Origin: a bacterium
GTDB lineage: Bacteria; Zhuqueibacterota; Zhuqueibacteria; Residuimicrobiales; Residuimicrobiaceae
Direction: 5' to 3'
Assembly (NCBI GenBank): GCA_029554865.1
Contig: JAKPUX010000228.1
Coordinates: forward strand, 25,883 to 89,882
DNA length: 64,000 bases
In this document: positions 38,683-57,199 of the stretch, in pieces
Layout of the letters: each line of letters opens with the position of its first letter
Numbering within the stretch: position 1 is the stretch's first letter
Program-made: the position numbers and the translations under genes
Notes under the pieces: generated by a model
The model's database searches: none
Seen by the model: the letters and a program-made list of their open reading frames with translations, nothing else
Told to the model about the DNA's origin: nothing

Positions 38683-38973
38683 TTACCCTTCAATAGTGCC
38701 TTTCATCTTGATCGGGAAGATATCTTCCAGATCGCCATGAGGACGCGGGATAACATGTACGGAGATCAGTTCGCCGATTTTCTGCGCCGCTGCGGCGCCG
38801 GCGTCAGTGGCCGCCTTACAGGCCGCGACATCGCCGCGCACCAAGGCGGTCACATAACCGGACCCGATCTGGTGGAACCCCACCAGTTTCACTCTCGCCG
38901 CCTTGACCATAGCATCCGAGGCTTCGATCAGCGCGACAAGTCCTCTGGTTTCGATCATTCCCAGTGCTTCCAT
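38683..38973 (-). CDS. eutM: BMC-H shell protein EutM (copy 2)
   Basis: 96 aa; protein identical to copy 1 over the first 92 residues, with a different C-terminal tail. Confidence 0.9.
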
Positions 38974-39011
38974 GAGTTACTCCTCGTTAGTTATTGGTAT
39001 GTTGAAAGAGA

Positions 39012-40816: not shown

Positions 40817-40820
40817 ACGC

Positions 40821-41588
40821 TTATCCCTGTTTTTGCGACGCCCAGTCCGCCGGATAGGTCACGTACATGATCTTGGTATAGGTGGGCGTGCCGAAGATGA
40901 TCTGGCTGCCCTTGGGGATGTAAAATACATCCCCCACCTTGCCCTCGAAGCATTTGCCGTTGATGGTGATGGCCAGGGTGCCCTGGAGGACGATGTCGAT
41001 CTCGTCGTAATTGAGGGTCCAGGCGAAGGAGTCCATCTTGCGCCAGGACATGAATCCGGCGCACATAGGCGAACGGTCCGTCGAGGTGATGACGTCGGCG
41101 AGGCGCACCTGTTTACCGGGCCCGGCCTCTGGCATGATATCCATACGCACCGAGCCGCCGCGCACCACGATCAGGCCGCTGTCGTCGACCACGCGCTGGC
41201 AGCAGGGGGCAGTGGGGGCGAGGGCCGCGGTGATGGAGGGCTGGCTCACGGGCAGGGGTGAAGGCGACGGCGGACAGGCTGCGGGCGGCTGCTGCAGCTG
41301 TTCCGCGACCAGCCGGGCGATCGTGGCGGGGTCGCGTTTGTCCGCGGGCAGCCGCTGGATGACCTGGGCGGCGATGGCTTTGACCAGCTCCTGGTCGCCG
41401 CCGGCGGCCTGGGCCCTCTGCTGCAGGGGGCAGCTCTCGCTTCCCGGCTCGACGAAGCAGATGCCGAACTTGGCGGCCAGGGTGGCTGCTTCGGGGGTGA
41501 TGATGGTCGTCTGCACCGAGGCCGGCAGCTCCTTGATGCCAGCGGTGCAGGCTTCTTTTATGGTCTGGGCTGTGATCAGTTTTTTCAT
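40821..41588 (-). CDS. eutQ: ethanolamine utilisation protein EutQ (cupin)
   Basis: 255 aa; N-terminal MKKLITAQ...IITPEAATLA and C-terminal cupin AGFMSW...WTLNYDEIDIVLQG...GDVFYIPKGSQIIFGTP matching EutQ. Confidence 0.85.
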   Translation of the reverse strand: MKKLITAQTIKEACTAGIKELPASVQTTIITPEAATLAAKFGICFVEPGSESCPLQQRAQAAGGDQELVKAIAAQVIQRLPADKRDPATIARLVAEQLQQPPAACPPSPSPLPVSQPSITAALAPTAPCCQRVVDDSGLIVVRGGSVRMDIMPEAGPGKQVRLADVITSTDRSPMCAGFMSWRKMDSFAWTLNYDEIDIVLQGTLAITINGKCFEGKVGDVFYIPKGSQIIFGTPTYTKIMYVTYPADWASQKQG

Positions 41589-41601
41589 TTTGGTTTCCTT
41601 T

Positions 41602-42069
41602 TTACTCTCCCGGATGGACGGCAGAAAAGGGCTCCCTGCTCAGAAAACGGCGCAAGGCATCGATGCTTTCGGGCTGGTAGACCGAGACCGGATAGATGGG
41701 GCCCTGGATGCCCGCATCCCGGATGAGCTCCTCGACCTCGGAGACCCGGGCATCCTCAAGATCGATTTTGGAAATGACGCCGATGATTTGTTTGGTCTCA
41801 TAGATATGAAACAAGCCAAAAGGCAGTTTGCGCTCCAGGGAGTTGGCCTGGTGCACATAGACAATGGTCTGGATATCGGTCATGGTCGAGATGAGCGCCG
41901 TATAGAGCCGGGGATTGTCAAAGTACTCGCCCGGGGTGTCGATGGTGCACTCATCGTGAAAGACCAGGGCCTGGGTTTTCTGGACCTCCCCCAGCCGGCC
42001 GAGCAGGGCTGCAAAGAGAGTCGACTTGCCCACCCCGGTGCCGCCGATGAGGATAAAATTGTTGAGCAT
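41602..42069 (-). CDS. eutP: EutP/PduV-family GTPase
   Basis: Start at [17 protein letters not shown] (the ORF track extends to 42318 in another gene's frame); P-loop plus DTPGEY switch; ATGA overlap with the eutS stop. Confidence 0.85.
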   Translation of the reverse strand: MLNNFILIGGTGVGKSTLFAALLGRLGEVQKTQALVFHDECTIDTPGEYFDNPRLYTALISTMTDIQTIVYVHQANSLERKLPFGLFHIYETKQIIGVISKIDLEDARVSEVEELIRDAGIQGPIYPVSVYQPESIDALRRFLSREPFSAVHPGE

Positions 42070-42428
42070 CAGGTCACCGTCACCGCGCAGGGGGTGTAGT
42101 TGAGAATCTCCTGCAAGGTCTTGTTGACCGATTTGAGTGCCTCCTCGACAGCACCGACCTCGCCATGGATCACCAGGGCGCCGGTGAAGCGGTCGAGAAA
42201 CCCGATCTGGACGTTGGCGGCCTTGACGGCGATATCGCCGGCGATCATGGCGGTCTCGCCCGGGGTGAGGGTCATAATGCCGATGGCATTGACGTAGGGG
42301 ATGCCGATTTTTTTGCACACCTCCTCACCCGGATGGGCGATCATATGGGCCAGGGTCACCTGCTTGCCTGGCACATACTCCTGGATGATGCGCTCTTTGT
42401 CCTGATAGGGGTTTCTCGAATCTTCCAT
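42069..42428 (-). CDS. eutS: circularly permuted BMC shell protein EutS/PduU
   Basis: 119 aa; ...[26 protein letters not shown]...[33 protein letters not shown]... matching EutS. Confidence 0.9.
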
Positions 42429-42429
42429 T

Positions 42430-43194
42430 TCAGTCCTGCATTCTGGCCAACAGGGCCCTGGTCAGCTCGCCGTATTCGAGCGCGCCGCGGGCGGAGGGGG
42501 CATAGCGGAGGATCGGTTCCCCGGCGCGGGCCGCTTCCGCCAGTTTGATATTCATGCCGATCACGGTCGGCAGCAGCAGATCGCCGTAGCGCTGCTTGAG
42601 GGTGTCGTAGACTTCGGCCGCGCTCCTGGTACGGCGGTCGAAGTGGGTCACAAAATAGCCGAGGGTGCGCAGGCGCGGATTGAGATGCCGCCGCGCTTTG
42701 GAGAGCATGTCGTCGGTCACCTCGAGGCCGGCGACGGCCAGGTACTGGGCCTGGACCGGGATGAGGGCATAGTCGGCGATGGCGAGGGCGTTCATCGCCA
42801 GGGGCCCCATATTGGGCGGACAGTCGCAGATGACCAGGTCGAATTCCTGAGGGATCTGCTCCCGGCTGATGAAAAAGGCCTCCGCCGCATCCTCGGCGAC
42901 CTCAAGATAAAAGTCGGCGAGGGAGGGTTCGGCGGGCAGGCAGAAGAGCTGCTCATCCCCGGCCGGATGGATAGCCGCGGAGAGATCGCGGCTTGCGTCG
43001 ACGAGATAGTCGCAGAGGGTCTTGACCCGTCCGGCTCCGGGGCCGAAGCCGAGGTGGCGCGATGCTCCGGCCGAGGGATCGAAATCAGCGAGCAGGGTCT
43101 TGTGGCCGAAGCGGGCACACCAGGCGGCAATGTTGACTGCACTGGTGGTTTTGCCCACGCCGCCCTTGTTGTTGATGACGACGACGATCTTCAT
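42430..43194 (-). CDS. ParA/MinD-family P-loop ATPase embedded in the BMC operon
   Basis: 254 aa; deviant Walker [19 protein letters not shown] with signature Lys, Walker B LVICDCPP; start overlaps the eutK stop (ATGA); stop 1 nt before the eutS start. Confidence 0.85.
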
Positions 43195-43772
43195 TTTTTA
43201 TCCGTGAGCGGATAATACTTGCGCTGCATTTTTTCGATGACACCCTCATCCAGCAGGGTCTTGAGGACGCCAAGGATGGCGGGGCGGTCACACTTCAAGG
43301 CCGCGGCCAGTTCATCCGCGGTGCTGCCTGCGGGGCGGGCCTGGATATGGCGCAGGGCGCGACTGCTCAGGTCCGCTCCGGTGCGTTTGGGTTTTTCAGG
43401 TTGCGGGGTTTTAGCCGGTGGCTGGCCGCCCCGGCCCTGACCGCTCCCGCCCTTGCCCGAGCCCTTTCTCTGGCCCATGCCCTTGCGCTTCTTGCTGATC
43501 AACTCCTCGACCAGAAAGTCGGTGTCTCCATCAGGGCGCGGGATGACATGGGCCGAGATCAGTTCGCCGAAGCGGATGGCCGCGGCGGAGCCGGCGTCGA
43601 CAGCCGCCTGGCAGGCGGCGAGGTCACCCTCACAGACGATGGTCACCAGGGCCCGCCCAGGGTTGTGCTGTTTGATCAGGCGCACGCGGGCGGCCTTGAC
43701 CATGGCATCAGCTGACTCGATGGCGCAGATCAGCCCTCTGGTTTCAATAAAGCCGTAGGAGAGTCCAGCCAT
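43191..43772 (-). CDS. eutK: BMC-H shell protein EutK (BMC domain, basic disordered linker, C-terminal wHTH-like domain)
   Basis: 193 aa; N-terminal BMC domain ([23 protein letters not shown]...HVIPRP), Gly/Lys/Arg/Pro-rich linker, C-terminal roughly 60-aa helix-turn-helix-like module as in EutK. Confidence 0.8.
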   Translation of the reverse strand: MAGLSYGFIETRGLICAIESADAMVKAARVRLIKQHNPGRALVTIVCEGDLAACQAAVDAGSAAAIRFGELISAHVIPRPDGDTDFLVEELISKKRKGMGQRKGSGKGGSGQGRGGQPPAKTPQPEKPKRTGADLSSRALRHIQARPAGSTADELAAALKCDRPAILGVLKTLLDEGVIEKMQRKYYPLTDKK

Positions 43773-43780
43773 AAAAAGCC

Positions 43781-44446
43781 TCAGCCCAGCATGAAGTAGA
43801 TGGGATTGCGCGCGATATCGAGTACGGTCTCCTGGAAGGCATCGCAGGCGGCTTTGCAGGCGGCCTGGGTGCCGGTGAGCAGACCTCCGGAAAAGTTGGT
43901 CTCGGAGGGCGGCGCAAAATAGAGGCAGAGGCGCACGTTGGCGGCCTTCATCGCCTGGTCGAGGGCGTAGGTGGCCTCGAGCGGCGGTGCGATCAGATAG
44001 GAGAGGGGCTCACCGGGAGTGATGCCGGCCACACCCGAGAGATAACTGCCGGTGCGGGCGATGAGGTGCGGGAAGAAGGTCAGGCTGTTGGCCTCGTTGG
44101 CTGAATACCAAATCGCTTCGTTTTCGAGATAGTCGAGGGCGGCCTGGATGCCGGCCTGGACCTCGCCGGGATTGGGGCCGGCCAGCATGGCGATGATCTC
44201 GCCGGAGAGGGGCCCGGAGGCGTGCGCAGCGCCGGCGTAGAAGGATTTGGCATAGACCACTTCGACTTCGGCCTTTTTGGTCGCCTCATCGATGCTGACG
44301 TAGAGGGCATCATCGATATCGGCGGTGATAAGGCCAAGGCTGCGCTGTTCGGGCTTGAGTTTGAGCTCGGCATGGAGTCCTGCATCCACCGAGGAGATCA
44401 GGCGGACGGCGAGGGGCCGGGCTTTGATGGGATCGAGGATTGCCAT
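43781..44446 (-). CDS. eutL: BMC-T shell protein EutL
   Basis: 221 aa; close match to recalled EutL throughout (…RSLGLITADIDDALYVSIDEATK…GPNPGEVQAG…SRTGSYLS…PPSETNFSGGLLTGTQAACKAAC…ARNP). Confidence 0.9.
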   Translation of the reverse strand: MAILDPIKARPLAVRLISSVDAGLHAELKLKPEQRSLGLITADIDDALYVSIDEATKKAEVEVVYAKSFYAGAAHASGPLSGEIIAMLAGPNPGEVQAGIQAALDYLENEAIWYSANEANSLTFFPHLIARTGSYLSGVAGITPGEPLSYLIAPPLEATYALDQAMKAANVRLCLYFAPPSETNFSGGLLTGTQAACKAACDAFQETVLDIARNPIYFMLG

Positions 44447-44476: not shown

Positions 44477-45367
44477 TTATTTCAGGTTGATGCCACTGGT
44501 TTTTTGGGCGATCATTTTCTTGACGGTATCGACGATCACGGCCGAAGCCTCGACCGGGGGGGTACCGAGCTTGTGAATGTTCGAGATCACGGTCCGGTCC
44601 GACTCGACGGTGGTGGCGACCGCGGGGCGGTAGACCATGTAGGCGCTCATGCTCTCAGACTGGCCGAGGCCGGGGCGCTCGCCGATGAGGAGGACCACCA
44701 CGTCGGCCTGAAGGTGCTCGCCGATCTCATCCTCCACCTTGACACGGCCGTATTTCACAAAGAAGGGGGTCCCCACCTTCAGGCCGGCCGACTCAAAGCC
44801 CTTGACCAGGGGGGGAAGGATTTCATCATAGTTGGCGGTCATGGCGTCCGTGGAAAGGCCGTCGGAGAGAACGATCTGCACCTGGGGTTGGTGGATGCAT
44901 TTTTCGCTGATGAGCCTGCGCCCCTCCTCCGAGAGCATGCGGCCGAGATCGGGCCGGGTCAGGTATTCGTCTTTGTCGGAGACCTGGGTCTGCACGATGA
45001 ACAGGCCGGTGCGTGTGGTCCACTCCTCGGGGATCTCCTTGAAGACGGTGTCGCGCGACAGGGAGTGATCGGCGAGGAAGCGCAGATAAGGCAGGGTACG
45101 GCTGCGGGTGCCGGTGCGGCCGACGGCGACGCGGGCATTGGTGGCGGCGCGCAGATCGCCCAGGGCCTTGGCGTTGTTGGGCTGCCCGATCCCGATCCAA
45201 CGCTTGACCTCCTCCCCGGCCAGGTCGGGCAAGGGGCCCTCGCCGGCTGTGGAGGGGGCGGGCGCAGGCGCTGCGCCTGCACTCTGGAGAGGACGGGGGG
45301 CGGCCGCCGGCGAGTTCATCTCCTGCAGCACCGCGTTGACAATGGCTTCAATCTGTTTTTGATCCAT
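44477..45367 (-). CDS. eutC: ethanolamine ammonia-lyase small subunit EutC with N-terminal encapsulation peptide
   Basis: 296 aa; N-terminal [17 protein letters not shown] helix, Pro/Ala linker, conserved EutC core. Confidence 0.9.
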
Positions 45368-45385
45368 GATTATCGGTCTCCAGAT

Positions 45386-46747
45386 CTAGAAAAATATCGA
45401 CGCATCGCCGGCCTTTTCGGTCAGCATACCATTTTTCATGATGCCCATCTTTTCGAGCCAGGCTTCAAATTCCGGGGCGGGACGCAGTCCCAGGGTGGCG
45501 CGGATGGTGGCAGTGTCGTGATAGGCGTTGGTCTGATAGTTGAGCATGATGTCATCGCCGAGGGGAACGCCCATGACGTAATTGATACCTGCTGCGGCGA
45601 GGAGGACGGTCAGGTTCTCGAGTGCGTTCTGGTCGGTGTTGGCATGGTTGGTGTAGCAGGCATCGGCCCCCATCGGAATGCCGTGGAGTTTGCCCATGAA
45701 ATGATCCTCGAGTCCGGCGCGGGTGATCTGGCGGCCGTCATAGAGGTACTCGGGCCCGATGAAGCCGACCACGGTGTTGACCAGGAAGGGGCGATAGCGC
45801 CGGGCCAGGCCGTAATTGCGCGCCTCGAGGGTGACCTGATCGGCGCCGTTATGGGCCCCGGCGGAGAGGGCCGAACCCTGGCCGGTTTCGAAGTAAAGCA
45901 TGCTCGAGCCGGCGATGCGGCAGTATTTCTTGCCCACCTCATAGGCCTCGTCGAGGAGTTCGACGGTGATGCCGAATTCCTTGAGCCCCTTCTCGGAGCC
46001 CGAGATGCTCTGGAAGATGAGGCCGGCCGGCGCGCCGTCGCGGATGGCGGCCATCTGGGTGGAGACGTGGGCGAGGACGCAGCTCTGGGCCGGGATCTGC
46101 CACTTGTCGATGATCTCCTGGATGCAGATAAGCAGCTTTTTGACATTTTCGGGCGAATCGATACAAGGGTTGATGCCGATCACCGCGTCGCCGACCCCAT
46201 AGGAGAGCCCCTCGTATATCTGCGCGGTGATGCTTTTGAGATCATCGCGCGGGTCATTGGGCTGAAGGCGGGCGCTGAAATGGCCCGGCAGACCGACGGT
46301 GGTATTGGCCTTGCTGACCACCGGGATGCGTTTGGCCGCATAGATGAGGTCGAGATTGGACATCAGTTTGGTGCAGGCCGCCACTATTTCGGAGGTCAAC
46401 CCCCGGCGCAGACGCTGGATGTCCTCCGGGGTGGTCCGGTCGCAGAGGACGTACTCGCGCAGTTCTCCCACTGTCCAGTTGCGGATCTCGGCAAAAACAT
46501 TCTCATTGACGGCGTCCTGGATCACGCGCGTGACTGCATCCTCCTCATAGGGGATGACCGGATGGTTACGCAGATCGGCCAGACTGAGGTTGGCGAGCAC
46601 ATATTTGGCGGCGACACGCTCCTGCGAGGTCTCGGCGGCGATGCCGGCGAGGACGTCGCCCGAGCGCAGCTCGTTCGCCTTGGCGAGGACATCCTTGATA
46701 TCCTTGAATTGATAGGTTTTCCCGAACAGCAGGGCGCTGAGCTTCAT
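45386..46747 (-). CDS. eutB: ethanolamine ammonia-lyase large subunit EutB
   Basis: 453 aa; MKLSALLFGKTYQFKDIKDVLAKANE... and full-length EutB similarity. Confidence 0.95.
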   Translation of the reverse strand: MKLSALLFGKTYQFKDIKDVLAKANELRSGDVLAGIAAETSQERVAAKYVLANLSLADLRNHPVIPYEEDAVTRVIQDAVNENVFAEIRNWTVGELREYVLCDRTTPEDIQRLRRGLTSEIVAACTKLMSNLDLIYAAKRIPVVSKANTTVGLPGHFSARLQPNDPRDDLKSITAQIYEGLSYGVGDAVIGINPCIDSPENVKKLLICIQEIIDKWQIPAQSCVLAHVSTQMAAIRDGAPAGLIFQSISGSEKGLKEFGITVELLDEAYEVGKKYCRIAGSSMLYFETGQGSALSAGAHNGADQVTLEARNYGLARRYRPFLVNTVVGFIGPEYLYDGRQITRAGLEDHFMGKLHGIPMGADACYTNHANTDQNALENLTVLLAAAGINYVMGVPLGDDIMLNYQTNAYHDTATIRATLGLRPAPEFEAWLEKMGIMKNGMLTEKAGDASIFF

Positions 46748-46761
46748 CTGCTTCTCCTCAA

Positions 46762-48198
46762 TTAGGATGGAAAGGCCAAAGATTTGACGGTCAGGGGCAC
46801 AATATCACCGCCGAAATAGCTTTTGCCGATATCTATGTAATCCCCCTCGCGGGTGTTCACCTCATCGATGACCGCGAGGGCTTTGGGTTTGATCAGGGGC
46901 TCGAGTTCCATGCCGAGCACCTTGCCGACATCATTGGCTGAGATTATGATCGCCGGATGGGCCGGATCGGGGTATTCCCGATAGAGCCGGGCCAGGGCGG
47001 AGGCGCACTGGACCACCGCGCGATAGGTCACCGGCATGGCGGCCGAGAGGGCGATGGCGAAGAGGTCGGCGCCGGGATCGAGGTCGTGACGCCGGGCGGC
47101 CTGCAGTATCTCGCCATATATCTCCGGCTCGGGCTGCTGCCAGTCGATCGCCGGATGCAGCACCGGGATGTTGCGCAAGGGCAGTTTCTCATAAGCGACC
47201 CAGATGGTGCTGCCGCTCAGCGAGAGCGAATAGGCACCGGCGCCGATGACGGTGGCGCGGATCGTCTGCCTGGGAAGCCGGACCGGATAGGCCTGCAGGC
47301 GGGGGTGAGTACGCAATGCATCAGCCAGAATGGGCCCAAGATCCCTGAAGTAAAAGGGATCACCTTGGGTCAATTGCGGATGATAAAAGCATTCACCCAC
47401 ACCGCCGGAGATGAAGAGGGCGTCCAGTTTGCCGGGCTCCTTCAGAGGCGGGGTCATGAGCAGTTCCTCGAGCAGGGGCGAGGAGAGGCCTTCGATAAGG
47501 TCGACGACGAGGTCGGCCATGCGCTGGGCTGTGCGCTCGAGATCAGCGCGGGTCAGGGCGTTGTTCTGGGGGATGGAGCCCGGGAAGAGGCTGCGCAGCA
47601 CCCTGGAGGCCGGTTCCCGTACCCGGGTGACCCGGCCGGCCGGATCGGTCTCGATGAGATGGCCGCCGACGTTGAGACAGGCGGTATCGATGACGCGGCC
47701 GTTATCAAAGAGCACATAGTTGGAGGTTCCGCCGCCGATGTCGATGTTGAGGACGCGGGCGGAACGGCTGTCGGAAAAATCGGCGGCTCCCGATCCCCGG
47801 CCGGCGATGACCGACTCCAGGTGGGGGCCCGCTGTAGCGACAACGAAATCGCCGAGGCGGTCGGCGAGGGTCATGATGGAACGGCGGGCGTTGCTCGCCT
47901 TGGAACTCTCGCCGGTGATGATGATCGCGCCGGTCTCGATCTCGTTGAGGGTTCTGCCGGCACGGGCATATTCACTTTGGAGCAGGGCGAAGAGCTGCTC
48001 TTCATCGATGGAACCATCCTCGTGCACGGGGGTCATGTGAATGGCGCTCTCGTAGAGGATGCGGCGCTCGCTGAATTCGTAACGCGGCACCTGGGTGGCG
48101 GGTGCGCGGTTGATCAGTTCGAGCGCGGAAAAGATCAGCTGCAGGGTGGTGGTGCCGATATCGATGCCGACACTGTCTATTTTCTTGGTTTCACTCAA
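46762..48198 (-). CDS. eutA: ethanolamine ammonia-lyase reactivase EutA
   Basis: 478 aa; tandem ASKHA ATPase repeats (GIDIGTTT...; NIDIGGGTSN). Confidence 0.9.
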   Translation of the reverse strand: MSETKKIDSVGIDIGTTTLQLIFSALELINRAPATQVPRYEFSERRILYESAIHMTPVHEDGSIDEEQLFALLQSEYARAGRTLNEIETGAIIITGESSKASNARRSIMTLADRLGDFVVATAGPHLESVIAGRGSGAADFSDSRSARVLNIDIGGGTSNYVLFDNGRVIDTACLNVGGHLIETDPAGRVTRVREPASRVLRSLFPGSIPQNNALTRADLERTAQRMADLVVDLIEGLSSPLLEELLMTPPLKEPGKLDALFISGGVGECFYHPQLTQGDPFYFRDLGPILADALRTHPRLQAYPVRLPRQTIRATVIGAGAYSLSLSGSTIWVAYEKLPLRNIPVLHPAIDWQQPEPEIYGEILQAARRHDLDPGADLFAIALSAAMPVTYRAVVQCASALARLYREYPDPAHPAIIISANDVGKVLGMELEPLIKPKALAVIDEVNTREGDYIDIGKSYFGGDIVPLTVKSLAFPS

Positions 48199-48255
48199 AT
48201 CGCCGCGCTCGTAAAGAGGGCCGGAGGGGACAAGCCCCTCCGGCTGTTGAAAGAA

Positions 48256-49491
48256 TTACTTCAGGAGTTTCGCTTCCGATTTGCCGACTGAAATGGTTTC
48301 GGACTGGGGCAAAAGCAGACCGGTGTTCTCGTTGCGGCCCTGGAGGATGAAGCGCGGAGTCTTCTCCGTCATCTGTTCCACGGCGAGCTTGCTGGCCTTG
48401 CCGATCGGGCCGCCCTTGAGGCGGTTGAAGATCAGGGCCAGTTTCATGCCCTTGAACTCGGTGATCATCTCATAGTCGCCGTCGCTGTCGGAGGCGGAGA
48501 AGATCGGATCGCCGCGATGGCCGAGCACCTTTTTGATGGCTTCCACTTTGCCCATGCGCTGGGTCTGCACCCAGCCGGTCTTGTACTGCGGCAGCAGTAT
48601 GTTATTTTTCACTTCCAGTTCCATGGCAATGACCTTGTTGGGGTCGATGTTGTAGCCGAAATTGCCAGGGGCGCCGAAGGTCTGGACCACCTGCTTGAGG
48701 CTGGCGGAGCAGATGTAAACGTCGATGCCGGCTTTCATCATCGATTCGGTCAGATCCTGCATCTCGGGATGGACGCGCAGGCCGCTCTTGTAGGTATAGT
48801 CAATCGGACCGGCCTTGCAGGCGAAGTTGCAGGGGGCTTTCCAGGTCACCTTGGTCAGTTTGTCGTTAAGAGCGAAGGTGATCGCATCTTTGGCCAGGGC
48901 CTGAACCTCTTCGACGGAGTGATTGGCCAGGAAGAAGAGCACCCAGGGATAGCCGTAGACAGCCTCGATGCCGGCGGTCTCGCAATAGCCGTCATAGAGG
49001 AAGGGCATCTTGGTGATGAAATCCTTGAACTGCGGGGTCTCGCGGATCTCTTCAATGGTCATCTTGCCGACGCCGAAGCCCGCATAGTTGTCATGCAGGA
49101 ATTCATAGGCGGAGATGATGTCGGCGTTGATGTCGGCCAGCTTGATGTTTTTGTAATCGGCATTGAGCTGCTTGACACCATTGACCTCGTCCTTGAAGAG
49201 GGCCTTGAACTCTTCCTTGCTCAGCTTGAACTTGAGATTCCAGAGCTGATGACGGAAGGTCGCCTCTTCGCAGTCAAGATGGGCCATGGTCTGGTCCCAG
49301 TCGAGAGCGACGTAGGGGGGATTCTTCTTGTCGTAGTACTTGCCGCCCACACCATAGTCCTTGATGAACTTGGAAAGGACTTCGTAGTTGCGCGGGGACC
49401 AGTTCATTTTGTTGAGGGCATAAACGGAGCTGGTGCCCAGGAAAAGAACAGCGATGAGAAGCAGGGCTATCGGGAGAAAAAATCTCTTCAT
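48256..49491 (-). CDS. secreted HAD-superfamily phosphatase (signal peptide, DxDxT motif)
   Basis: 411 aa; N-terminal signal peptide MKRFFLPIALLLIAVLFLGTSSVYA; HAD motif I DWDQTM, motif IV-like SASDSDGD; lower GC than flanking genes. Confidence 0.55.
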   Translation of the reverse strand: MKRFFLPIALLLIAVLFLGTSSVYALNKMNWSPRNYEVLSKFIKDYGVGGKYYDKKNPPYVALDWDQTMAHLDCEEATFRHQLWNLKFKLSKEEFKALFKDEVNGVKQLNADYKNIKLADINADIISAYEFLHDNYAGFGVGKMTIEEIRETPQFKDFITKMPFLYDGYCETAGIEAVYGYPWVLFFLANHSVEEVQALAKDAITFALNDKLTKVTWKAPCNFACKAGPIDYTYKSGLRVHPEMQDLTESMMKAGIDVYICSASLKQVVQTFGAPGNFGYNIDPNKVIAMELEVKNNILLPQYKTGWVQTQRMGKVEAIKKVLGHRGDPIFSASDSDGDYEMITEFKGMKLALIFNRLKGGPIGKASKLAVEQMTEKTPRFILQGRNENTGLLLPQSETISVGKSEAKLLK

Positions 49492-49527
49492 GATTGTGAC
49501 CTCCGGTTGATTAGGGATTTGGGTTGC

Positions 49528-50595
49528 CTAGAACTCCACCCAGAACTGGGTGACAAAGCGCAGGTTGCCTTTGGATTCATCGCCAACCTTGAAGCCGTCG
49601 CGGACGACGTTGAACATCAGATAGTTCTCGCCGATGATCTTGTAGTTGAGGCCGGCGAGGATCATGTTCCACTCATCATTGTCCACATCGCCATTGGGAT
49701 CGAGCTGGCCATACTCGCCGACGAACATCAGGTTCGGGAGGATGTTATAGTTGACATAGCCCATGTAGGTCAGGCCACTGACGCCATCGAGTTCGGGGAC
49801 CGCCTCGACGTTCTTCTTGCCGGTAGTGACTTCAACACCGACATCGAGCTTCTTGTCGATGGCGTACTCAGCGCCGCCGCCGATCCAGAAGTTGTTGTCC
49901 TTGTTGCTGGCCTTGTTGTAGTAATCGGTCATGGTCCAACCGAAAACGGAGAGGCCGGCTACCGGTTTCAACCAGATGTCAGCGATGACGTTTTTGGCTT
50001 TGTTGTCTTCTTTGGCATAGCTGTAGGTGTTCTTGTTGGCCACGGCGAGGCGGGCATAGCCCTTGACGCCCAGGCTGGCCGGGAGGTTGTAGGTCGCCAT
50101 GGCGCCGGTGACGGCAGAGCTGTAGCCATTGTCAAAAGCGGTGCCGCTGACGTAAGCGAAGCGGTCGATCCACGAATTTTCGATGGTGTTGTGGTAGCTC
50201 TGAGCTCCCGGCTGCTCATAGTTGCCAAAGAGCATCTCGAGGCCCGGCAAACCCAGGAAATTCTTGAACTGAATGTAGGCGTACTTGATGCGGGCGTTGG
50301 TGCCCTGATTCAGCAGTTTGCCGTTCTGGGGGTCGGTGTAGTTGCGGTGGTTGAAATCCAGGGTGTAGCGCATCGCGATGTTGTCCGAGTATTTGTATCT
50401 CATCGTGACATAGCCGCGATCGAAGTAGAAGTAGTTGGAGGTTGCTTTGGTGTAGGGTTCCTCGACCATGTAGCGGTAGCGCAGAACGGTCTGGAAGGTG
50501 AGTTTGTCGTTGAGCTTTTCAGCCTGGGCCACGCTCGAGGCGAAGATCAGAACTACCAGCGTCAACAGGATGGTAACGGTGAGTTTTTTGTACAT
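49528..50595 (-). CDS. outer-membrane beta-barrel porin
   Basis: 355 aa; signal peptide, alternating amphipathic beta-strand pattern rich in Tyr/Gly/Asn, C-terminal ...FWVEF with terminal Phe; lower GC. Confidence 0.6.
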   Translation of the reverse strand: MYKKLTVTILLTLVVLIFASSVAQAEKLNDKLTFQTVLRYRYMVEEPYTKATSNYFYFDRGYVTMRYKYSDNIAMRYTLDFNHRNYTDPQNGKLLNQGTNARIKYAYIQFKNFLGLPGLEMLFGNYEQPGAQSYHNTIENSWIDRFAYVSGTAFDNGYSSAVTGAMATYNLPASLGVKGYARLAVANKNTYSYAKEDNKAKNVIADIWLKPVAGLSVFGWTMTDYYNKASNKDNNFWIGGGAEYAIDKKLDVGVEVTTGKKNVEAVPELDGVSGLTYMGYVNYNILPNLMFVGEYGQLDPNGDVDNDEWNMILAGLNYKIIGENYLMFNVVRDGFKVGDESKGNLRFVTQFWVEF

Positions 50596-50669
50596 ACTAC
50601 TCCTCCTTAGATTGGGGTTTGGGTGGATTGATCAAGCCGTGGAGCCACCGGCCGCGATCTTTCGTTTGC

Positions 50670-51929
50670 TCATTCTCCCTTGGGTGGGGCGGCTTCCAGG
50701 GCCGCCTGGCTGCCCTTGGGGGCAAGGAGCATGGCGAAGAGCACTGCGGTGATGCCTCCGATGAGTTTGCCGACAATTACTGCAAAGATCATGTCCGGCT
50801 TGTTTGCTGCGGTGAAACCAAGATGGTCGCCGAAGGTGAAGGCGGCGCTGACGGCGAAGGCGACATTGAGGACCTTACCGCGGTCATCCATGCCGCTCAT
50901 CAGCTTGAACATCGGGATGTTGTTGGCCAGGGTGGCGATCATGCCGGCGGCGGCGGTGCTGTTCATCTTGAGCAGGCGGCCGACGCTGAGCAGGGGTTTT
51001 TCGAACCAGCGCGTGAGGAGATAGACCATGGGATAAGCGCCGAGGAGGACGATGGCGATACGGCCGATGACCTCGATGGCGCGCAGGTCGATGCCGGGCT
51101 GATCACCGCTGACCGGGAAGATCGGATCCATGCCGGGGATGATCTTGAGGCCGGTGAGGGTCTCGAGGACGATCGAGGCGAGGCCGAGTGTGATCAGGGC
51201 CACCAGCAGCTTGGCGAAGACCAGGAAGCCCTTGATCATGGCGTTGGGTCGGCGCCAGAGTCCGAGGGCGATGAGCAGGGAGACGATGACCACCGGGATG
51301 AGGTTCTTGAAGATCAGCCCCAGGGTGAAAATCACCGCGGTGCCGTCCGCTGCCTTGATGTTGGAGATCATGGCCACCAGACCGCCGGCGATACAGCCGA
51401 GGGGGATGGTGACGATGCCGGCGAGGACGCCGAGGGCGAGGTGTTTGCGGTCGGCCTTGTCGATGATGCCGATGCCGACGGGTATCGAAAAAACGATGGT
51501 CGGGCCCATCATGGCGCCCAGGATGAGGCCGGCGTACATCCAGGCGGGATAGTCGATCTGGCCCGCTGTGGTGGCCAGCTCTTTGGCGAGGAAAAAGCCG
51601 CCCATGTCATTGGCCAGCAGGGTGGTGGCGAACATGGCGGGGCTGGCGCCGAGGAACTGGTAGAGAGGGATGATGACCGGGCCGAGCAGGCGGGCCAGCA
51701 CCGGGGCCAGGCTGATCACACCCACCATGGCCAGGGCAAGGGGCCCCATGGCGTTAAAGCCCTCCTCGAATTGGGCCCCTGCGCCGTCAAAGGCGCGGCC
51801 CAGCCGGCCGAGGCGCACCCTTTTGAAAACGCTTTCCGATCCCCCGAACTGCATCAGGATGCGATCCAGGGCGCCCAGCACCATGAATGCCATCATGATG
51901 TCGATGATGATTTGATTGACCAGTGCCAT
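50670..51929 (-). CDS. eutH: ethanolamine permease EutH
   Basis: 419 aa polytopic membrane protein matching the EutH family. Confidence 0.8.
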   Translation of the reverse strand: MALVNQIIIDIMMAFMVLGALDRILMQFGGSESVFKRVRLGRLGRAFDGAGAQFEEGFNAMGPLALAMVGVISLAPVLARLLGPVIIPLYQFLGASPAMFATTLLANDMGGFFLAKELATTAGQIDYPAWMYAGLILGAMMGPTIVFSIPVGIGIIDKADRKHLALGVLAGIVTIPLGCIAGGLVAMISNIKAADGTAVIFTLGLIFKNLIPVVIVSLLIALGLWRRPNAMIKGFLVFAKLLVALITLGLASIVLETLTGLKIIPGMDPIFPVSGDQPGIDLRAIEVIGRIAIVLLGAYPMVYLLTRWFEKPLLSVGRLLKMNSTAAAGMIATLANNIPMFKLMSGMDDRGKVLNVAFAVSAAFTFGDHLGFTAANKPDMIFAVIVGKLIGGITAVLFAMLLAPKGSQAALEAAPPKGE

Positions 51930-51967: not shown

Positions 51968-53188
51968 TCAGAGTGCCTGTTGGTAAATCCTGATGATATC
52001 CTCTTTCTGCGCCGTGCGCGGGTTGGTGCGCAGGCAGCTGTCCTGCAGCGCCTGGTCGGCGAGCTGGGGCAGATCTTTGTCCGTGACCCCGAATCCGGCC
52101 AGACCCGAGGGCATGCCGAGATCCTCGATGAGGTGGATGACGGCGGTGACAGCACGCTCGGCGGCCTCCCGCCGGTTCAGGTTTTCGACCCTCTCTCCGA
52201 GGGCGGTGGCGATATCGCCGAACTCTTCGGCCCGCACCAGCAGGTTGAAGCGCATCACATGCGGCAGGATCAGGGCGTTGGCCGTGCCGTGCGGGATCTT
52301 GAAGCGGCCGCCCGCCTGATGAGACATGGCGTGGCAGAGGCCCAGGCCGGCGTTGGAAAAGGCCATGCCGGCCATGTAGCAGGCGACGGCCATCTTGTGG
52401 CGCGCCAGGGTGTTGGTGCCGTAGCCGACGGCGATGGGCAGATAGGTCGCAACCAGGCGGATGGCGCGGAAGGAGAGCGCGCGCGCCAGGGTGCAGGAAC
52501 TCTGGGCGACATAGGCTTCGATGGCGTGGGTCAGCACGTCGAGGCCGGTGGCGGCAGTCACCGCCGGCGGCAGGCCGATAGTCAGCAGGGGGTCGATGAT
52601 CGCCACGGCGGGGATCAGGGCTGGATGTTCAAAGACGACCTTGCGGCCGGAGGCGGGATCGCCGATGACGGCGAGGTCGGTGACCTCTGAAGCGGTGCCC
52701 GCTGTGGTCGGCATGGCGGCCAGAGGAAGAGGCTTTTGCGCCAGCTCGCTGTCGGGATCGATCTCGGCGAAGGGAAGGGGGTTGCGGGCGAGCAGGGCGA
52801 TCATCTTGGCGGCATCGATAGGAGAGCCGCCGCCAACCGCCAGAACCGCATCGCATCCTGCGCTCTTGACCATCGCCGTGCCCGCGTTCACCATCGCCCA
52901 GGTCGGTTCACCCGAGATCTGGGCGAAAATCTCCGCACTCAGCCCCTTGCGCTGCAGGGAACGCAGGACGACATCGAGGAGGCCGAGCTGAAGGATGGTC
53001 TGATCGGTGACGATCAGCACCCGGCTGGCCCCGATCCGTTTCATCTCCGCGCCGGTCCTGGCCGCGACCCCGTCACCCACAAGGGCCAACGGCGGCACGC
53101 GGAAGGTGAAATGGTTGGCGACGGAGATCTCGTCCACGGTCTGGGCGACGATCTCTTCGATGAAGCGCTGTTCGCTGCCTCTCTCCAA
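51968..53188 (-). CDS. eutG: iron-containing alcohol dehydrogenase EutG-like with N-terminal encapsulation-type extension
   Basis: 406 aa; Fe-ADH motifs (GGGSPIDAAK, metal-binding His cluster CHAMSHQ); about 25-aa N-terminal amphipathic extension RFIEEIVAQTVDEI before the ADH core. Confidence 0.85.
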   Translation of the reverse strand: MERGSEQRFIEEIVAQTVDEISVANHFTFRVPPLALVGDGVAARTGAEMKRIGASRVLIVTDQTILQLGLLDVVLRSLQRKGLSAEIFAQISGEPTWAMVNAGTAMVKSAGCDAVLAVGGGSPIDAAKMIALLARNPLPFAEIDPDSELAQKPLPLAAMPTTAGTASEVTDLAVIGDPASGRKVVFEHPALIPAVAIIDPLLTIGLPPAVTAATGLDVLTHAIEAYVAQSSCTLARALSFRAIRLVATYLPIAVGYGTNTLARHKMAVACYMAGMAFSNAGLGLCHAMSHQAGGRFKIPHGTANALILPHVMRFNLLVRAEEFGDIATALGERVENLNRREAAERAVTAVIHLIEDLGMPSGLAGFGVTDKDLPQLADQALQDSCLRTNPRTAQKEDIIRIYQQAL

Positions 53189-53190
53189 GG

Positions 53191-53856
53191 CTACTGTTTC
53201 CTGAGATTCTCAATGAACAATCGGATCGCTTCGCGCGCGGCGAGCTTGACCGGATCCCGCCCGACAGCCTCGTCAAAGGCCCCGCTGCGGGCGACGACGC
53301 CCTCGAAACGGCCGTGGGCCAGCGTGACGGCCCCGCTGCGGTCAAAGATGGCATAATCGAGCTTCGCCGCCATACCGCGCACAGGGGCATCGCTGCTCCG
53401 CATCGACACATCGTCGCTGGCCTCCTGGGTGATGGTCAGTGCCGCAGGGGCCACGATGAAATCGAACCCCTGGGGCGCCGAGGTCAGTCTGGCGGGATCG
53501 AGGGCGGCCGCGCGCCAGTAATCCTTTTCCTGCACCACGGAGAGCACCGGCGCCGCATCCGCTGCTGCGGCCTCCGCCCAATAGATGGTCTTCCAGGGGC
53601 CGGCTGTAAAGGCCTGATAGAGATCCTGCTGGATGAGAGCGCGGACCTGGTCGAGATCATCGGATTTGTCGAAGAGGGAGATGACGGAGGAGGAGCTTTC
53701 AATATCGATAAGAGTCAGGGGAAGCAGAAGGATGTTCTTGCCATGAAGGTCACGCTTGCTGAAAGAGGGATCGTCCACCTGCAGGGGTTTTACAAAGGAG
53801 TGGCAGCCGGCGATGATCAGCAGTAGCAGACAAAAGGGAGGCAATATTTTTTTCAA
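53191..53856 (-). CDS. lipoprotein of unknown function
   Basis: Start proposed at TTG with AGGAG 8 nt upstream (the ORF track ATG lies at 53895); lipobox LLIIAGC. Confidence 0.45.
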   Translation of the reverse strand: MKKILPPFCLLLLIIAGCHSFVKPLQVDDPSFSKRDLHGKNILLLPLTLIDIESSSSVISLFDKSDDLDQVRALIQQDLYQAFTAGPWKTIYWAEAAAADAAPVLSVVQEKDYWRAAALDPARLTSAPQGFDFIVAPAALTITQEASDDVSMRSSDAPVRGMAAKLDYAIFDRSGAVTLAHGRFEGVVARSGAFDEAVGRDPVKLAAREAIRLFIENLRKQ

Positions 53857-53878
53857 GGTGTTAACTCCTGGATTGGTT

Positions 53879-54292
53879 TCAGACCAGGTGCACATGACTG
53901 GAATGGTTCTTCTTTTTCAGGCCGCGGGTCACCGCCTGAATGAGCTGCTGGTCGTCGAAGGGTTTGTCGAGATACCCCGCGCAGCCGCGTTCGCGCAGCC
54001 CGGTGCGCAGCTCAGTATCGCCATAAGCCGAGATGGCGATCAACGCATAGTAGGATCTAAAGTGCTGCAGCTCCTCGAGCAGGGCCAGTCCACCGGAAAC
54101 CGGCATCTGCAGGTCGATGATGACAAGCTGGACGGGACAGCCCTGGCTCTCCGCGAGTTGGATCTTCTTCAGGGCCTCACCGAGATTCCGGGCCGAGCTG
54201 ACCAGAAAACGCGCGCTTTGCAGGATAAAATCGATGCTGTCTCGCGTGTATTCATCGTCATCAACGATGAGTATGTGCGGCGAATTATCCAT
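53879..54292 (-). CDS. stand-alone response-regulator receiver (CheY-like) protein
   Basis: Start at MDNSPHILIVDDDEYT (the ORF track begins at 54313); receiver acidic pocket and VIIDLQMP phospho-Asp region; no output domain. Confidence 0.75.
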   Translation of the reverse strand: MDNSPHILIVDDDEYTRDSIDFILQSARFLVSSARNLGEALKKIQLAESQGCPVQLVIIDLQMPVSGGLALLEELQHFRSYYALIAISAYGDTELRTGLRERGCAGYLDKPFDDQQLIQAVTRGLKKKNHSSHVHLV

Positions 54293-54317: not shown

Positions 54318-54338
54318 CTTGCAATAAGCAGGCCAAAG
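54318..54338 (-). promoter_or_regulatory. candidate sigma-54 (-24/-12) promoter for the eut/BMC operon
   Basis: Minus-strand sequence cTTTGGCCTGCTTATTGCAag: GG-N10-GC spacing with TGGC at -24 and TTGCA at -12, about 35 nt upstream of the receiver ATG and downstream of a sigma-54 activator gene. Confidence 0.4.
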
Positions 54339-54512: not shown

Positions 54513-55946
54513 CTATTTCTCGAGGCTATCCGGTTTCCGGTGCAGGCGGTTGTTGAGGGCGCGGCGAGTGATGCCAAGCATCATGGCGGCGATTTTCTGG
54601 TTGCCCCGGCTGCGGGCGAGGGCCTCCTGGATGAGCAGATCCCCGGCTTCTTTCATGGTCGGGAGCGAGTCGCCGAAGGCCATCCGTTTGGCGGTGGCGA
54701 TGGCGGCCGCGGGATCCGTCTCACCGTTTTTAGGCAGACCATTGTTGCCCACCTTCTCGCGGATGGCCTCAAGGGAGAGGATCCCCTTTTGATGGCGGCT
54801 GATGGTATCGAGGATCATCCCTTCCAGTTCGCGGATGTTGCCGGGGAAGAGGTAGTTGCTGAGCAGGATGAAGAGTTCGGGCGGCACAGCCGGCACCTTT
54901 TTCTGCAGGGTGGCGCAGGCCTTGCGGATAAAATGGTCGGTGAGCAGGTGGATATCGTCGCGGCGCTCGCGCAGGGGAGGAATATGGATGCGATGGGTTT
55001 GCAGGCGATAAAAGAGATCGCGGCGGAAAGCTCCGCTCTGCACCATCTCTTCGATGTCGCGGTTGGTGGCGACAATGAAGCGGGCATTGGAGAGGCGGGG
55101 GATATCCGAGCCGATCGGGTAATAGCGGCCTTCCTGGAGGATGCGCAGCAGTTTGACCTGGGATTCCTGGCTCAGTTCGCCGATTTCGTCGAGAAAGAGG
55201 GTGCCGTCGCCGGCCTGTTCGATGAGACCCTTGCGGTCGCTCTCCGCGCTGGTGAAGCTGCCCCGCTTGTGACCGAAGAGGGTGTCAGAGAAGAGGGTGT
55301 CATCGATGCCGGCGACATTGACAGCGATGAACTGCCCGCTGCGTCCGCTCGCCTTGTGGACCGACTGGGCGATGAGTTCCTTGCCGACCCCGGTCTCGCC
55401 GGTGATGAGCACCGGCAGGGGGGTGGTGGCGACCGCCTCGGCGTACTGGAATATGGAGCGCATGGAGGCGTTCTGGGTGACGGTGGAGGCGAAGGCCTCC
55501 GCATTCTTGAGGGTGTTGGAGAGGAGATACTCCTTGAGGCGTGAGTTTTCATCCTGCATCTGGCGCAGTTCGGCGGCGCGCCGGACGGTCGTCACCAGCC
55601 GGCTCTCGTCGACGGGCTTGACGAGGTAGTCAAAAGCCCCGCATTTCATGCATTCGACGGCGGAATTGACCTCATTGATGGCGGTGAGGATGATCACCGG
55701 TAGATGGGGGTACTCCTTGACGATCTCGGGGAGGAGCTTGGAGCCGGAGAGTCCGGGCATCGCCAGGTCGAGGAGGGCCATCTCGCAGGGGGTCTCCTGG
55801 AGCATTCCGAGCACGGCGCGGCTGTCGCCGCATTCGATGACGTTGTTGATGCCGTTGGAGCTGAGGGTCATCATCAGGCTGAGCCTGAACTGTTCTTCGT
55901 CATCCACAACCAGGACCGGCAGGGCGGGATAGGTGATTTTTTTCAT
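54513..55946 (-). CDS. sigma-54-dependent Fis-family response regulator (NtrC-like enhancer-binding protein)
   Basis: 477 aa; receiver domain, AAA+ sigma-54 interaction domain (GETGVGKE, GAFRRDLFYRL, ESELFGH-like FGHKRGSFT) and C-terminal Fis HTH. Confidence 0.9.
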   Translation of the reverse strand: MKKITYPALPVLVVDDEEQFRLSLMMTLSSNGINNVIECGDSRAVLGMLQETPCEMALLDLAMPGLSGSKLLPEIVKEYPHLPVIILTAINEVNSAVECMKCGAFDYLVKPVDESRLVTTVRRAAELRQMQDENSRLKEYLLSNTLKNAEAFASTVTQNASMRSIFQYAEAVATTPLPVLITGETGVGKELIAQSVHKASGRSGQFIAVNVAGIDDTLFSDTLFGHKRGSFTSAESDRKGLIEQAGDGTLFLDEIGELSQESQVKLLRILQEGRYYPIGSDIPRLSNARFIVATNRDIEEMVQSGAFRRDLFYRLQTHRIHIPPLRERRDDIHLLTDHFIRKACATLQKKVPAVPPELFILLSNYLFPGNIRELEGMILDTISRHQKGILSLEAIREKVGNNGLPKNGETDPAAAIATAKRMAFGDSLPTMKEAGDLLIQEALARSRGNQKIAAMMLGITRRALNNRLHRKPDSLEK

Positions 55947-57199
55947 CTCTCTTCGCTCGGTTTTGCATTTGGGCCGTTTTTCTTCTGTTTGCTGCCCATA
56001 AGCGAGGGTGCACTGGACTGTCCTCCCGGCGACTGGGCGATGTAAAGAATGGTGCTCTTGACCGAGGTGACGAAACGGTCAAAGGCGCGCGTCAGCTCCC
56101 CGATCTCGTCCGGCCGGGTGGAATTGAAAAGGGTGTTGATGTGGGCGTTCTTCATGCGCTCGGCCACCTCCTTGATCGGGGTGGTGATCTTGGTGGCGAC
56201 CAGAAAGACCAGGCCGGTCATGAGCAGCAGGGCGGCCAGCCCGATCAGGAGCATCGCCCGGGTGAGCGAGCGGACCCCCGCCAAGGCCTCCTGGCGCGGC
56301 ACGACAGCGATGAAGCTCCAGTTGCCGGTCTTCATCGGTGAAAAGAAGATCAGGATGGGGTGGTGGGTTTCAGGATCTTCGGTTTCGATGAAGCCGTCCT
56401 CCCCGCGCTGGATCTGCTCCGCCAGCTTGATGAACCCTTCGCCGCCGGCCTCGCGCCCGTATTCACTGAGGCTCTTGTGACCGACCAGACTGCGGTCCTT
56501 GTGGGCGATGATGGTGCCCTTGTTGCTGACCATGAAGGCGAAGCCGCTCTCGAAGAGCTTGATCCTGGTGATCATGTCCGAAAGGTATTCGAGCGAGACG
56601 TCGCCGGTGGCGACGCCGGTGAATTTGCCCTCCCGGAGGATGGGGGCGGAGAAGGTGGCCATGAGCACGCCGCGGTAGAGATAGGGTTCGGTAAGCAGGG
56701 AGGTGCCGGTGGCCTTGGGAATCTGGTACCAGTCATCAGTCTGATAGTTGACGAGGGGTTCGACGGCGATCTTGCCGGTGATGCGGTTCCAGTAGGGGAG
56801 GAAGCGGCCGTCGGCATCGCTGCCCGGGGTGCCGCGGTACTGACTGTCGCGGCCGTCGAAGGCGTTGGGTTCGAAGCCCAGGCTCAGGCCGACAAAGTTC
56901 TCATGACGGATGATGAACTGGCGCAGCATGGCGTTCACCTCCGCCCGGTCCCGGGAACGATAGTTTTCCATCACGGTCGCCACGGTTTCGACAAATTCGA
57001 GGCCGGCGCGCATCTGCACCTGCACCTCGGAGGCGTAGTGGCGTGTGGTCTCCTGGGTTTGCCTGATGATCGCTTCATTCTGCTGGGTGGTGCTCATGTT
57101 GATGATCGTCAGGGCGAAGAACATCAGGATGAAGAGCAGTCCCGGAATCAGATAGAAGAGGATCTCTGTGCGGATGGAGTTGCGCCATGTTGAAAACAT
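55943..57199 (-). CDS. membrane sensor protein with periplasmic Cache-like domain and cytoplasmic HAMP domain (no transmitter)
   Basis: 418 aa; two TM helices bracketing a roughly 280-aa periplasmic domain with dCache-like pattern, HAMP (IKEVAERMK...IGELTRAFDRFV) and no kinase or MCP domain; overlaps the regulator start (ATGA). Confidence 0.7.
   Translation of the reverse strand: MFSTWRNSIRTEILFYLIPGLLFILMFFALTIINMSTTQQNEAIIRQTQETTRHYASEVQVQMRAGLEFVETVATVMENYRSRDRAEVNAMLRQFIIRHENFVGLSLGFEPNAFDGRDSQYRGTPGSDADGRFLPYWNRITGKIAVEPLVNYQTDDWYQIPKATGTSLLTEPYLYRGVLMATFSAPILREGKFTGVATGDVSLEYLSDMITRIKLFESGFAFMVSNKGTIIAHKDRSLVGHKSLSEYGREAGGEGFIKLAEQIQRGEDGFIETEDPETHHPILIFFSPMKTGNWSFIAVVPRQEALAGVRSLTRAMLLIGLAALLLMTGLVFLVATKITTPIKEVAERMKNAHINTLFNSTRPDEIGELTRAFDRFVTSVKSTILYIAQSPGGQSSAPSLMGSKQKKNGPNAKPSEER

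Follow-up and report, generated by a model that had tools for sequence, protein, structure and literature searches.

A porin and a secreted HAD phosphatase within a bacterial eut locus: a candidate phosphoethanolamine front end for the ethanolamine microcompartment

The use of ethanolamine by gut pathogens and anaerobes has been studied in depth, and the release of ethanolamine from lipid head groups is usually ascribed to unspecified phosphodiesterases. The canonical eut operons, EUT1 of Salmonella and E. coli and EUT2 of Firmicutes, encode EutABC, EutH, shell proteins, an aldehyde dehydrogenase, EutT, EutP/Q and a phosphotransacetylase. All of these are shared by a locus in the 64,000-nt stretch of contig JAKPUX010000228.1 considered here (the window), which comes from an uncultured anaerobe. 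What sets this locus apart from the canonical operons is the joint presence of a transacetylase of the Pta type, a ParA-like ATPase and regulation through sigma-54 and dCache proteins. The window was analysed through Pfam and NCBIfam profiles, open reading frames (ORFs), sequence and structure models. Between its eutH and eutA genes lie genes for an outer-membrane porin and a secreted phosphatase of the HAD family. It is likely that both are functional parts of the eut system. The narrower proposal, that together they would act as a periplasmic front end converting phosphoethanolamine to ethanolamine for the Eut microcompartment, is the one we favour, albeit with restrained confidence.

The closest characterised enzyme is PchP of Pseudomonas aeruginosa (PDB 4as2/4as3, EC 3.1.3.75), a HAD phosphomonoesterase that, like the window protein, has a large helical cap and is placed in the periplasm, in the latter case by prediction. 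Once exported, PchP hydrolyses phosphocholine, phosphoethanolamine and p-nitrophenyl phosphate, releasing from the first two an amino alcohol which feeds its catabolism (PMC3170909). Residues E42, E43 and Y82-84 have been implicated in alkylammonium binding, and choline and choline metabolites switch on expression of the enzyme through GbdR and NtrC (PMC3170909). No connection of PchP to a eut operon or a partner porin was found in the literature examined. A HAD gene is nevertheless on record inside a eut microcompartment locus: in Fusobacterium, a PF12710 protein described as similar to PchP (PMC6620236, PMC11796344) was predicted to be a phosphate acetyltransferase (PMC6620236, Ravcheev et al. 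2019) and elsewhere left uncharacterised (PMC11796344). Unlike the window protein, it has no reported porin partner. Apart from these two mentions, full-text literature searches returned no eut-linked phosphoethanolamine phosphatase or porin, and the main texts of the surveys of bacterial microcompartment (BMC) loci do not mention a porin or phosphatase in EUT loci. The chemistry of PchP and the Eut pathway are known; what is new is their combination as a conserved envelope front end, with a dedicated porin family and two HAD subfamilies occupying a single slot.

The two genes and their immediate neighbours are the following.

49528-50595, minus strand: outer-membrane porin of 355 aa, with a signal peptide, an L3-type loop motif and a C-terminal Phe
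48256-49491, minus strand: secreted (periplasmic) HAD phosphomonoesterase of 411 aa, related to 4gxt and PchP; proposed phosphoethanolamine phosphatase
50670-51929, minus strand: EutH, inner-membrane ethanolamine channel (PF04346, E 7.6e-131)
46762-48198, minus strand: EutA (PF06277, E 5.4e-166)

All four genes share a strand and are closely spaced, with gaps of 74 nt between EutH and the porin, 36 nt between the porin and the HAD gene and 57 nt between the HAD gene and EutA. The original prediction, made from the DNA letters, had described just this arrangement: two genes in line between eutA and eutH, in the same orientation with short gaps, one encoding a signal-peptide-bearing HAD protein of about 400 aa with the motifs DWDQT and SDSDGD, and the other a 355-aa porin ending in Phe. 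Every element of that description, down to both motifs, the porin length and the terminal Phe, is found in the window. The extracytoplasmic location proposed for both proteins also agrees with sequence-based prediction. The HAD protein begins with a canonical Sec signal peptide, MKRFFLPIALLLIAVLFLGTSSVYA, followed by LNK (predicted cleavage VYA/L), and the porin with MYKKLTVTILLTLVVLIFASSVAQA, followed by EKL (predicted cleavage AQA/E). Strong ribosome-binding sites, AAGGAGGAG and GGAGG, precede the two ORFs, and homologues of both proteins occur in other phyla at 45-60% identity. An antisense ORF of 697 aa (48517-50610, plus strand) overlaps both genes and was rejected as spurious, the minus-strand frames having a G+C content at third codon positions (GC3) of 0.80-0.81, cross-phylum homologues, ribosome-binding sites and confident structure models.

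The HAD protein carries a full set of catalytic motifs: motif I (DWDQT, residues 64-68), motif II (S262-A263-S264), motif III (K315) and motif IV (SDSDGD, residues 334-339, with D335 and D339). These four motifs are invariant in 21 family members. D64, D66 and T68 are also kept across both of the HAD subfamilies described below and PchP, and motifs II-IV align with S166, K242, D262 and D267 of PchP. Every homologue inspected bears a Sec, lipoprotein or Tat signal. The best sequence match in the PDB is 4gxt (phmmer E 1.7e-48, residues 26-397, which is full length, 30% identity), followed by PchP 4as2 (E 1.7e-5, residues 155-297 only). Foldseek with the AlphaFold model (pLDDT 87.8) also returned 4gxt at the top (TM-score 0.82/0.88) and PchP second (E 2.5e-13, TM-score 0.51/0.63, 18% identity), ahead of a Planctomyces HAD that is itself uncharacterised; 5'-nucleotidases III and phosphoserine phosphatases ranked lower. 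The predicted fold clearly places the window protein among the HAD enzymes. By sequence it belongs with 4gxt, which has the same fold, in an extracytoplasmic HAD family that 4gxt typifies and that has no curated name; its score against TIGR01488 (HAD-IB) is 35, with a cut-off of 45. Both in sequence and in fold, the characterised protein closest to it is PchP, and not a member of some unrelated family, as had been considered a possible outcome. The two differ in the length of the precursor (411 aa against 349 aa in PchP) and in the 4gxt-like subfamily to which the window protein belongs.

A likeness to PHOSPHO1 had been suggested at the outset. PHOSPHO1 is a eukaryotic enzyme, and the chemistry proposed here, hydrolysis of phosphoethanolamine or phosphocholine by a HAD protein, is the same. 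The assignment itself was rejected: PF06888 (PHOSPHO1/Put_Phosphatase) gave no match to the window protein even at E values up to 10, and PHOSPHO1 is absent from the Foldseek list.

Resemblance to PchP extends in part to the region of the alkylammonium site. In an alignment of the window HAD, the second HAD subfamily and PchP, the invariant positions are the catalytic residues together with W31, D73, E76, Y181-x-W183-V184 and R239. D73 and E76 correspond to PchP D40 and E43. The pair E75/E76 aligns with E42/E43 of PchP at the same spacing from motif I, E75 being kept in the window's subfamily. The tyrosine triplet Y82-Y84 of PchP is preserved in the window protein only as Y169, aligned with Y83, and Y166.

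The porin was modelled with confidence as a classical 16-strand barrel with an L3-type loop, in keeping with its earlier description as a porin. The predicted features comprise a signal peptide, 16 antiparallel strands, a long constriction loop after strand 5 and a C-terminal aromatic residue. The loop contains a conserved motif, FGNYEQPG.QSYHNTIENSW.DR. Invariant basic residues lie on strands 1-4 (R41, R60, R76, R102 and K104), and acidic ones where strand 5 ends and within the loop (E127, E139 and D144); with lumen orientation read from the secondary-structure map, the predicted charge layout is that of a classical eyelet. The protein shares 9-13% identity with the 16-strand trimeric porins OprP/OprO, VhChiP, PorB and Omp32, from which a distinct, invariant L3 motif sets it apart. 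In Pfam and NCBIfam it reaches the threshold of no model, the only weak matches being to OMP_b-brl and the N-terminus of a Desulfovibrio porin model. Some family members match Porin_4, BBP2 and Porin_O_P weakly. A tie to phosphate-selective Porin_O_P or anion channels is suggestive but weak, and at most distant: the window porin has no match to Porin_O_P (PF07396) and one of 15 family members reaches E 5.5e-4, while four of the ten nearest remote relatives in a profile search pass the PF07396 threshold. An exhaustive profile search of 1.84 billion representative proteins recovered the family as essentially one 50%-identity cluster, with the next match at 4e-19.

Comparison loci and proteins are labelled here by L- and P-numbers. 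The order EutH-porin-HAD-EutA-B-C-L recurs in a relative of the window at 90% identity (L006) and in metagenome-assembled genomes (MAGs) of Ignavibacteriota, at 54-59% identity for the HAD protein and 48-55% for the porin. The synteny check called for by the original prediction shows the two genes to be a conserved part of a family of eut loci. In a second variant the order is HAD-porin-EutA-B-C, without eutH close by; it comprises L086, L087, L090, L092 and L099, and one version of its HAD is labelled as from a Calditrichaceae MAG. This type-B HAD is barely alignable with the window HAD (BLASTP about 1e-4) and matches PchP over its full length (2e-21). It is secreted, in at least some members as a lipoprotein, has all the HAD motifs and contains a large insertion between motifs II and III. 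Since it stands beside the same porin family and eutABC, the slot accommodates two kinds of secreted HAD that are only distantly related, one of them clearly PchP-like.

Eut loci that lack the porin also contain such proteins. A window-type HAD (39% identity) lies directly downstream of eutH in the L083/L085 pair, from a Clostridiaceae MAG, in which it is a predicted lipoprotein, and a Synergistaceae MAG. In cultured Desulfoluna limicola, the genome of which is complete, a PchP-like HAD of type B (P0161) is encoded within the eut locus, flanked by eutB and a BMC-T gene (L091, AP024488.1, 1359688-1376923). This organism is a sulfate reducer, and a dCache chemoreceptor is encoded just downstream. 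The gene contexts of the weakest type-B matches, P0226 and P0228, which are candidate Fusobacterium-like or PchP-like forms, were uninformative.

Viewed from the porin, all loci with usable flanks are linked to both HAD and eut genes, save one divergent subclade (L088/L089, 46% identity), which lies by glycosidase genes without HAD or eut. A porin-HAD pair away from eut genes, which the original prediction had named as telling evidence against a shared role, was never seen in the loci examined. The window proteins themselves are found in uncultured MAGs such as ADurb.Bin431, and the locus sequence is identical in the JGI metagenome contig Ga0302250_1000397.

It is attractive to combine these features into a single route. 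A two-component, sigma-54-driven operon would co-express the porin, the HAD phosphomonoesterase, EutH and the Eut microcompartment genes. Phosphoethanolamine, the likely sources of which are degraded phosphatidylethanolamine, sphingolipids and envelope decorations in necromass-rich anoxic habitats, would cross the outer membrane through the dedicated porin. In the periplasm the HAD enzyme would split it into ethanolamine and phosphate. Ethanolamine would then cross the inner membrane by way of EutH (in loci lacking eutH, by diffusion), to be deaminated by EutBC in the microcompartment. The uptake route of phosphatase plus porin that had been envisaged is supported by the secretion signals, HAD motifs, relation to PchP, 16-strand porin model and conserved linkage to eut genes; for the substrate we infer phosphoethanolamine, possibly with other amino-alcohol phosphates, and the cargo of the porin is inferred along with it. 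The further suggestion that phospholipid head groups or glycerophosphoethanolamine are the source is not supported. It would call for a phosphodiesterase or phospholipase, and none was found in the locus, where a 234-aa lipoprotein without detectable homology is the sole unassigned candidate.

Several observations weigh against phosphoethanolamine as the specific substrate. Sequence identity to PchP is about 18-23%, with a match over part of the protein only, which makes the window HAD a relative of PchP and not an orthologue; it scores 26.8 bits against PF12710, for which the gathering score is 27; and 4gxt, from Anaerococcus prevotii DSM 20548, was itself deposited as a protein of unknown function. 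A porin of the 16-strand class would pass ethanolamine as well, and some eut loci with porin and HAD lack eutH. In addition, nine of 80 species-level genome loci of the window-type HAD family are eut-linked, the remainder having no eut gene within 10 kb, so that membership of the family does not by itself give the substrate. Outside eut loci, clustering of neighbouring ORFs from 65 loci revealed no conserved neighbour of the HAD gene, the largest cluster being a generic ABC ATPase (12 loci) and the rest housekeeping genes. Most of these homologues are lipoprotein genes of Bacteroidota, others coming from Desulfobacula, Anaeromyxobacter and Elusimicrobia, and in a rough neighbour-joining tree the eut-linked HADs are basal or paraphyletic to this radiation. 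With its majority outside eut loci the family is not intrinsically tied to the ethanolamine pathway, and the substrate could be broader. This invites an alternative in which the HAD protein is a periplasmic phosphatase of broad or different specificity (acting on phosphocholine, phosphoserine or nucleotides, or in phosphate scavenging), the porin serves as a channel for phosphate or anions, and the link to eut reflects a need for phosphate or operon hitch-hiking. The stand-alone lipoprotein genes with housekeeping neighbours would fit it, as would the 5'-nucleotidases and phosphoserine phosphatases that follow PchP among the structural neighbours, the label 'phosphoserine phosphatase' given by JGI to many homologues, and the remote ties of the porin to Porin_O_P and OprP. 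Against this, two distant HAD subfamilies have entered eut loci in at least five lineages and three gene orders, the residues specifically shared with PchP sit at its alkylammonium site, and the porin family is nearly restricted to eut loci. We regard this alternative as unlikely, albeit the most serious of those considered.

A further possibility is that the porin is an ethanolamine-inducible channel for free ethanolamine, with the HAD protein recycling phosphoethanolamine from turnover of the cell's own envelope. Ethanolamine is small enough for any porin, the eyelet, with its invariant basic residues on strands 1-4 and acidic L3 loop, is that of a general porin, and the periplasmic dCache sensor points to detection of a ligand in that compartment. 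However, the adjacency of porin and HAD persists without eutH and with a swapped HAD subfamily, which suggests that the porin serves the phosphatase. Clostridiaceae are monoderm, and the HAD of the porin-less Clostridiaceae eut locus, as a predicted lipoprotein, would act on an external substrate rather than in recycling. This explanation seems to us less probable still. That the HAD protein is a phosphate acetyltransferase of a third, non-canonical type in the Eut pathway is very improbable. It was proposed for the Fusobacteria PF12710 protein, eut-cluster HADs with 28% identity to PchP having been assigned this activity in genomes without Pta and PduL (PMC6620236). The window HAD has a cleavable signal peptide, and its homologues have lipoboxes or Tat motifs; as a predicted secreted protein it cannot meet acetyl-CoA inside the microcompartment. 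The window locus moreover has its own Pta (PF01515, E 3.5e-113). HAD chemistry, being phosphoryl transfer to water through an aspartyl-phosphate intermediate, also speaks against acetyl transfer. Equally little credence is given to the two ORFs being a recent horizontal insertion or non-functional genes. The dip in G+C content that had been remarked on is real, at 0.553 and 0.547 for the two genes and 0.60-0.66 for their neighbours, or 5-10 points under the flanks. The deficit is confined to the first and second codon positions (0.50-0.53 and 0.33, respectively), whilst GC3 matches that of the neighbours (0.77-0.85). The low G+C content thus reflects amino-acid composition, that of Lys/Asn/Tyr-rich extracytoplasmic proteins, as had also been suggested, and is no sign of foreign DNA. 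With the arrangement kept in the 90%-identity relative and in other phyla, recent insertion is refuted by GC3 and synteny, and the confident structure models of both proteins argue against non-functional ORFs.

More tentatively, and a little short of even likelihood in our estimate, the phosphoethanolamine reading may be extended to other lineages. An envelope module, consisting of the porin and a periplasmic phosphoethanolamine phosphatase from either of the two HAD subfamilies, would have been recruited repeatedly into Eut loci; anaerobes would physiologically feed phosphoethanolamine, and not free ethanolamine alone, into the Eut pathway; and the published assignment of a 'HAD-type phosphate acetyltransferase' would be wrong. 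The lineages concerned would be that of the window, Ignavibacteriota, the Calditrichaceae-like forms, Desulfobacterota, Clostridia and Synergistota, and possibly the eut HAD of Fusobacterium. If true, phosphoethanolamine would become an added direct substrate, a bacterial microcompartment pathway would possess an envelope front end, and a first function would be available for a widespread family of secreted HADs which includes the structural-genomics orphan 4gxt. For the uncharacterised HAD gene of the virulence-linked eut locus in Fusobacterium nucleatum the proposal offers a new interpretation open to test, and the cultured D. limicola and the genetically tractable F. nucleatum ATCC 23726 make the idea directly testable.

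One group of homologues outside eut loci has a suggestive context. Desulfobacula HADs are among the closest of these, at 58-59% identity. In the Desulfobacula locus L008 (11302-15237), which has a restriction-modification system and no eut genes, the HAD gene and an ABC importer of the PotABCD type (SBP_bac_1/8) are convergently oriented, and the amine product may there be taken up by another route.

The regulatory elements of the window locus are listed below.

53879-54292, minus strand: single-domain response regulator, first gene of the operon (PF00072, E 3.4e-20)
54320-54335, minus strand: sigma-54 type -24/-12 element TGGCCTGCTTATTGCA (TGGC-N7-TTGCA), about 28 nt upstream of the first operon gene
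54513-55946, minus strand: sigma-54-dependent response regulator, immediately upstream of the operon
55943-57199, minus strand: periplasmic dCache-HAMP sensor
57232-58683, minus strand: PAS histidine kinase
48220-48244, minus strand: 10-bp GC-rich hairpin, right after the HAD stop codon and before eutA

From 5' to 3' the transcript would read response regulator, lipoprotein, iron-containing alcohol dehydrogenase, EutH, porin, HAD, EutA, EutB, EutC, EutL and the remaining microcompartment genes to about 33.8 kb. Co-transcription is probable given the short gaps, good ribosome-binding sites, absence of a terminator excess and conserved sigma-54 element; terminators and sigma-70 promoters between 46.5 and 54.6 kb were not above shuffle expectation. 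The putative sigma-54 promoter is also present in L006 (TGGCCTGCTTCTTGCT, 5154-5169), its spacing to the orthologous gene being unchanged despite divergence of the flanks. A counterpart of the response regulator occupies the same position in L086 and L092, and the same set of regulatory genes lies upstream in L006, L086 and L092. The 64-nt intergenic stretch with the hairpin folds at -24 kcal/mol (z -1.78), and in L006 (about 11250-11275) the stem is kept and the loop differs. With its weak U-tract the hairpin may act in attenuation or in mRNA stability, and not as a full terminator, and may modulate read-through into eutA.

In the Ignavibacteriota loci the metabolic module is the same and the wiring differs: the dCache-HAMP sensor and PAS kinase are fused and paired with a LytTR regulator, and there is no sigma-54 activator. 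The only match in an Rfam scan of the window was a tmRNA gene (RF00023, 193.9 bits; 58751-59114, minus strand), which lies just upstream of the eut regulatory genes; the locus gave no riboswitch match.

The rest of the eut locus is made up as follows.

53191-53895, minus strand: lipoprotein of unassigned function, 234 aa, lipobox LLIIAGC; start probably a TTG near 53853
51968-53188, minus strand: iron-containing alcohol dehydrogenase, EutG-like (PF00465, PF25137)
44477-48198, minus strand: eutA, eutB and eutC, encoding the reactivase and ethanolamine ammonia-lyase (PF06277, PF06751, PF05985)
33823-44446, minus strand: remaining Eut microcompartment locus, with EutL, EutM/K-like, ParA-like ATPase, EutP, EutQ, EutT, Pta, two BMC-H, EutN, aldehyde dehydrogenase, RnfC/PduS-like and BMC-T

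The locus thus holds EutB with EutC, EutA, shell genes of the BMC-H, BMC-T and BMC-P types, an aldehyde dehydrogenase and a phosphotransacetylase, the set that marks a Eut microcompartment. A Pta-type phosphotransacetylase (39012-39995, minus strand), a ParA/MinD-like ATPase among the shell genes (42430-43194, minus strand) and the EutG-like dehydrogenase are combined in it. The Pta type has been described as unique to gammaproteobacterial EUT1 loci (Axen et al. 2014), and its presence outside them means that the window locus fits neither EUT1 nor EUT2 cleanly. The 234-aa lipoprotein has no Pfam, NCBIfam or PDB match. Its counterparts, at 20-54% identity, occur in related eut loci, in Ignavibacteriota upstream of the sensor kinase, and it may represent an additional envelope part of this system.

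Elsewhere in the window, four consecutive ORFs (314, 362, 227 and 463 aa; 29231-33161, minus strand) without a Pfam match lie downstream of the microcompartment genes. The aldehyde dehydrogenase and RnfC/PduS-like genes are separated by 819 bp (35746-36564) without an assigned gene, a stretch that contains only an 89-aa ORF (35776-36045) and overlapping ORFs. A protein with the C-terminal sorting domain of the type IX secretion system (T9SS) and a SurA-like chaperone are encoded on the plus strand at 23987-24949 and 25225-27027. The T9SS marks the FCB group, and these two proteins suggest that the host is a diderm of that group.

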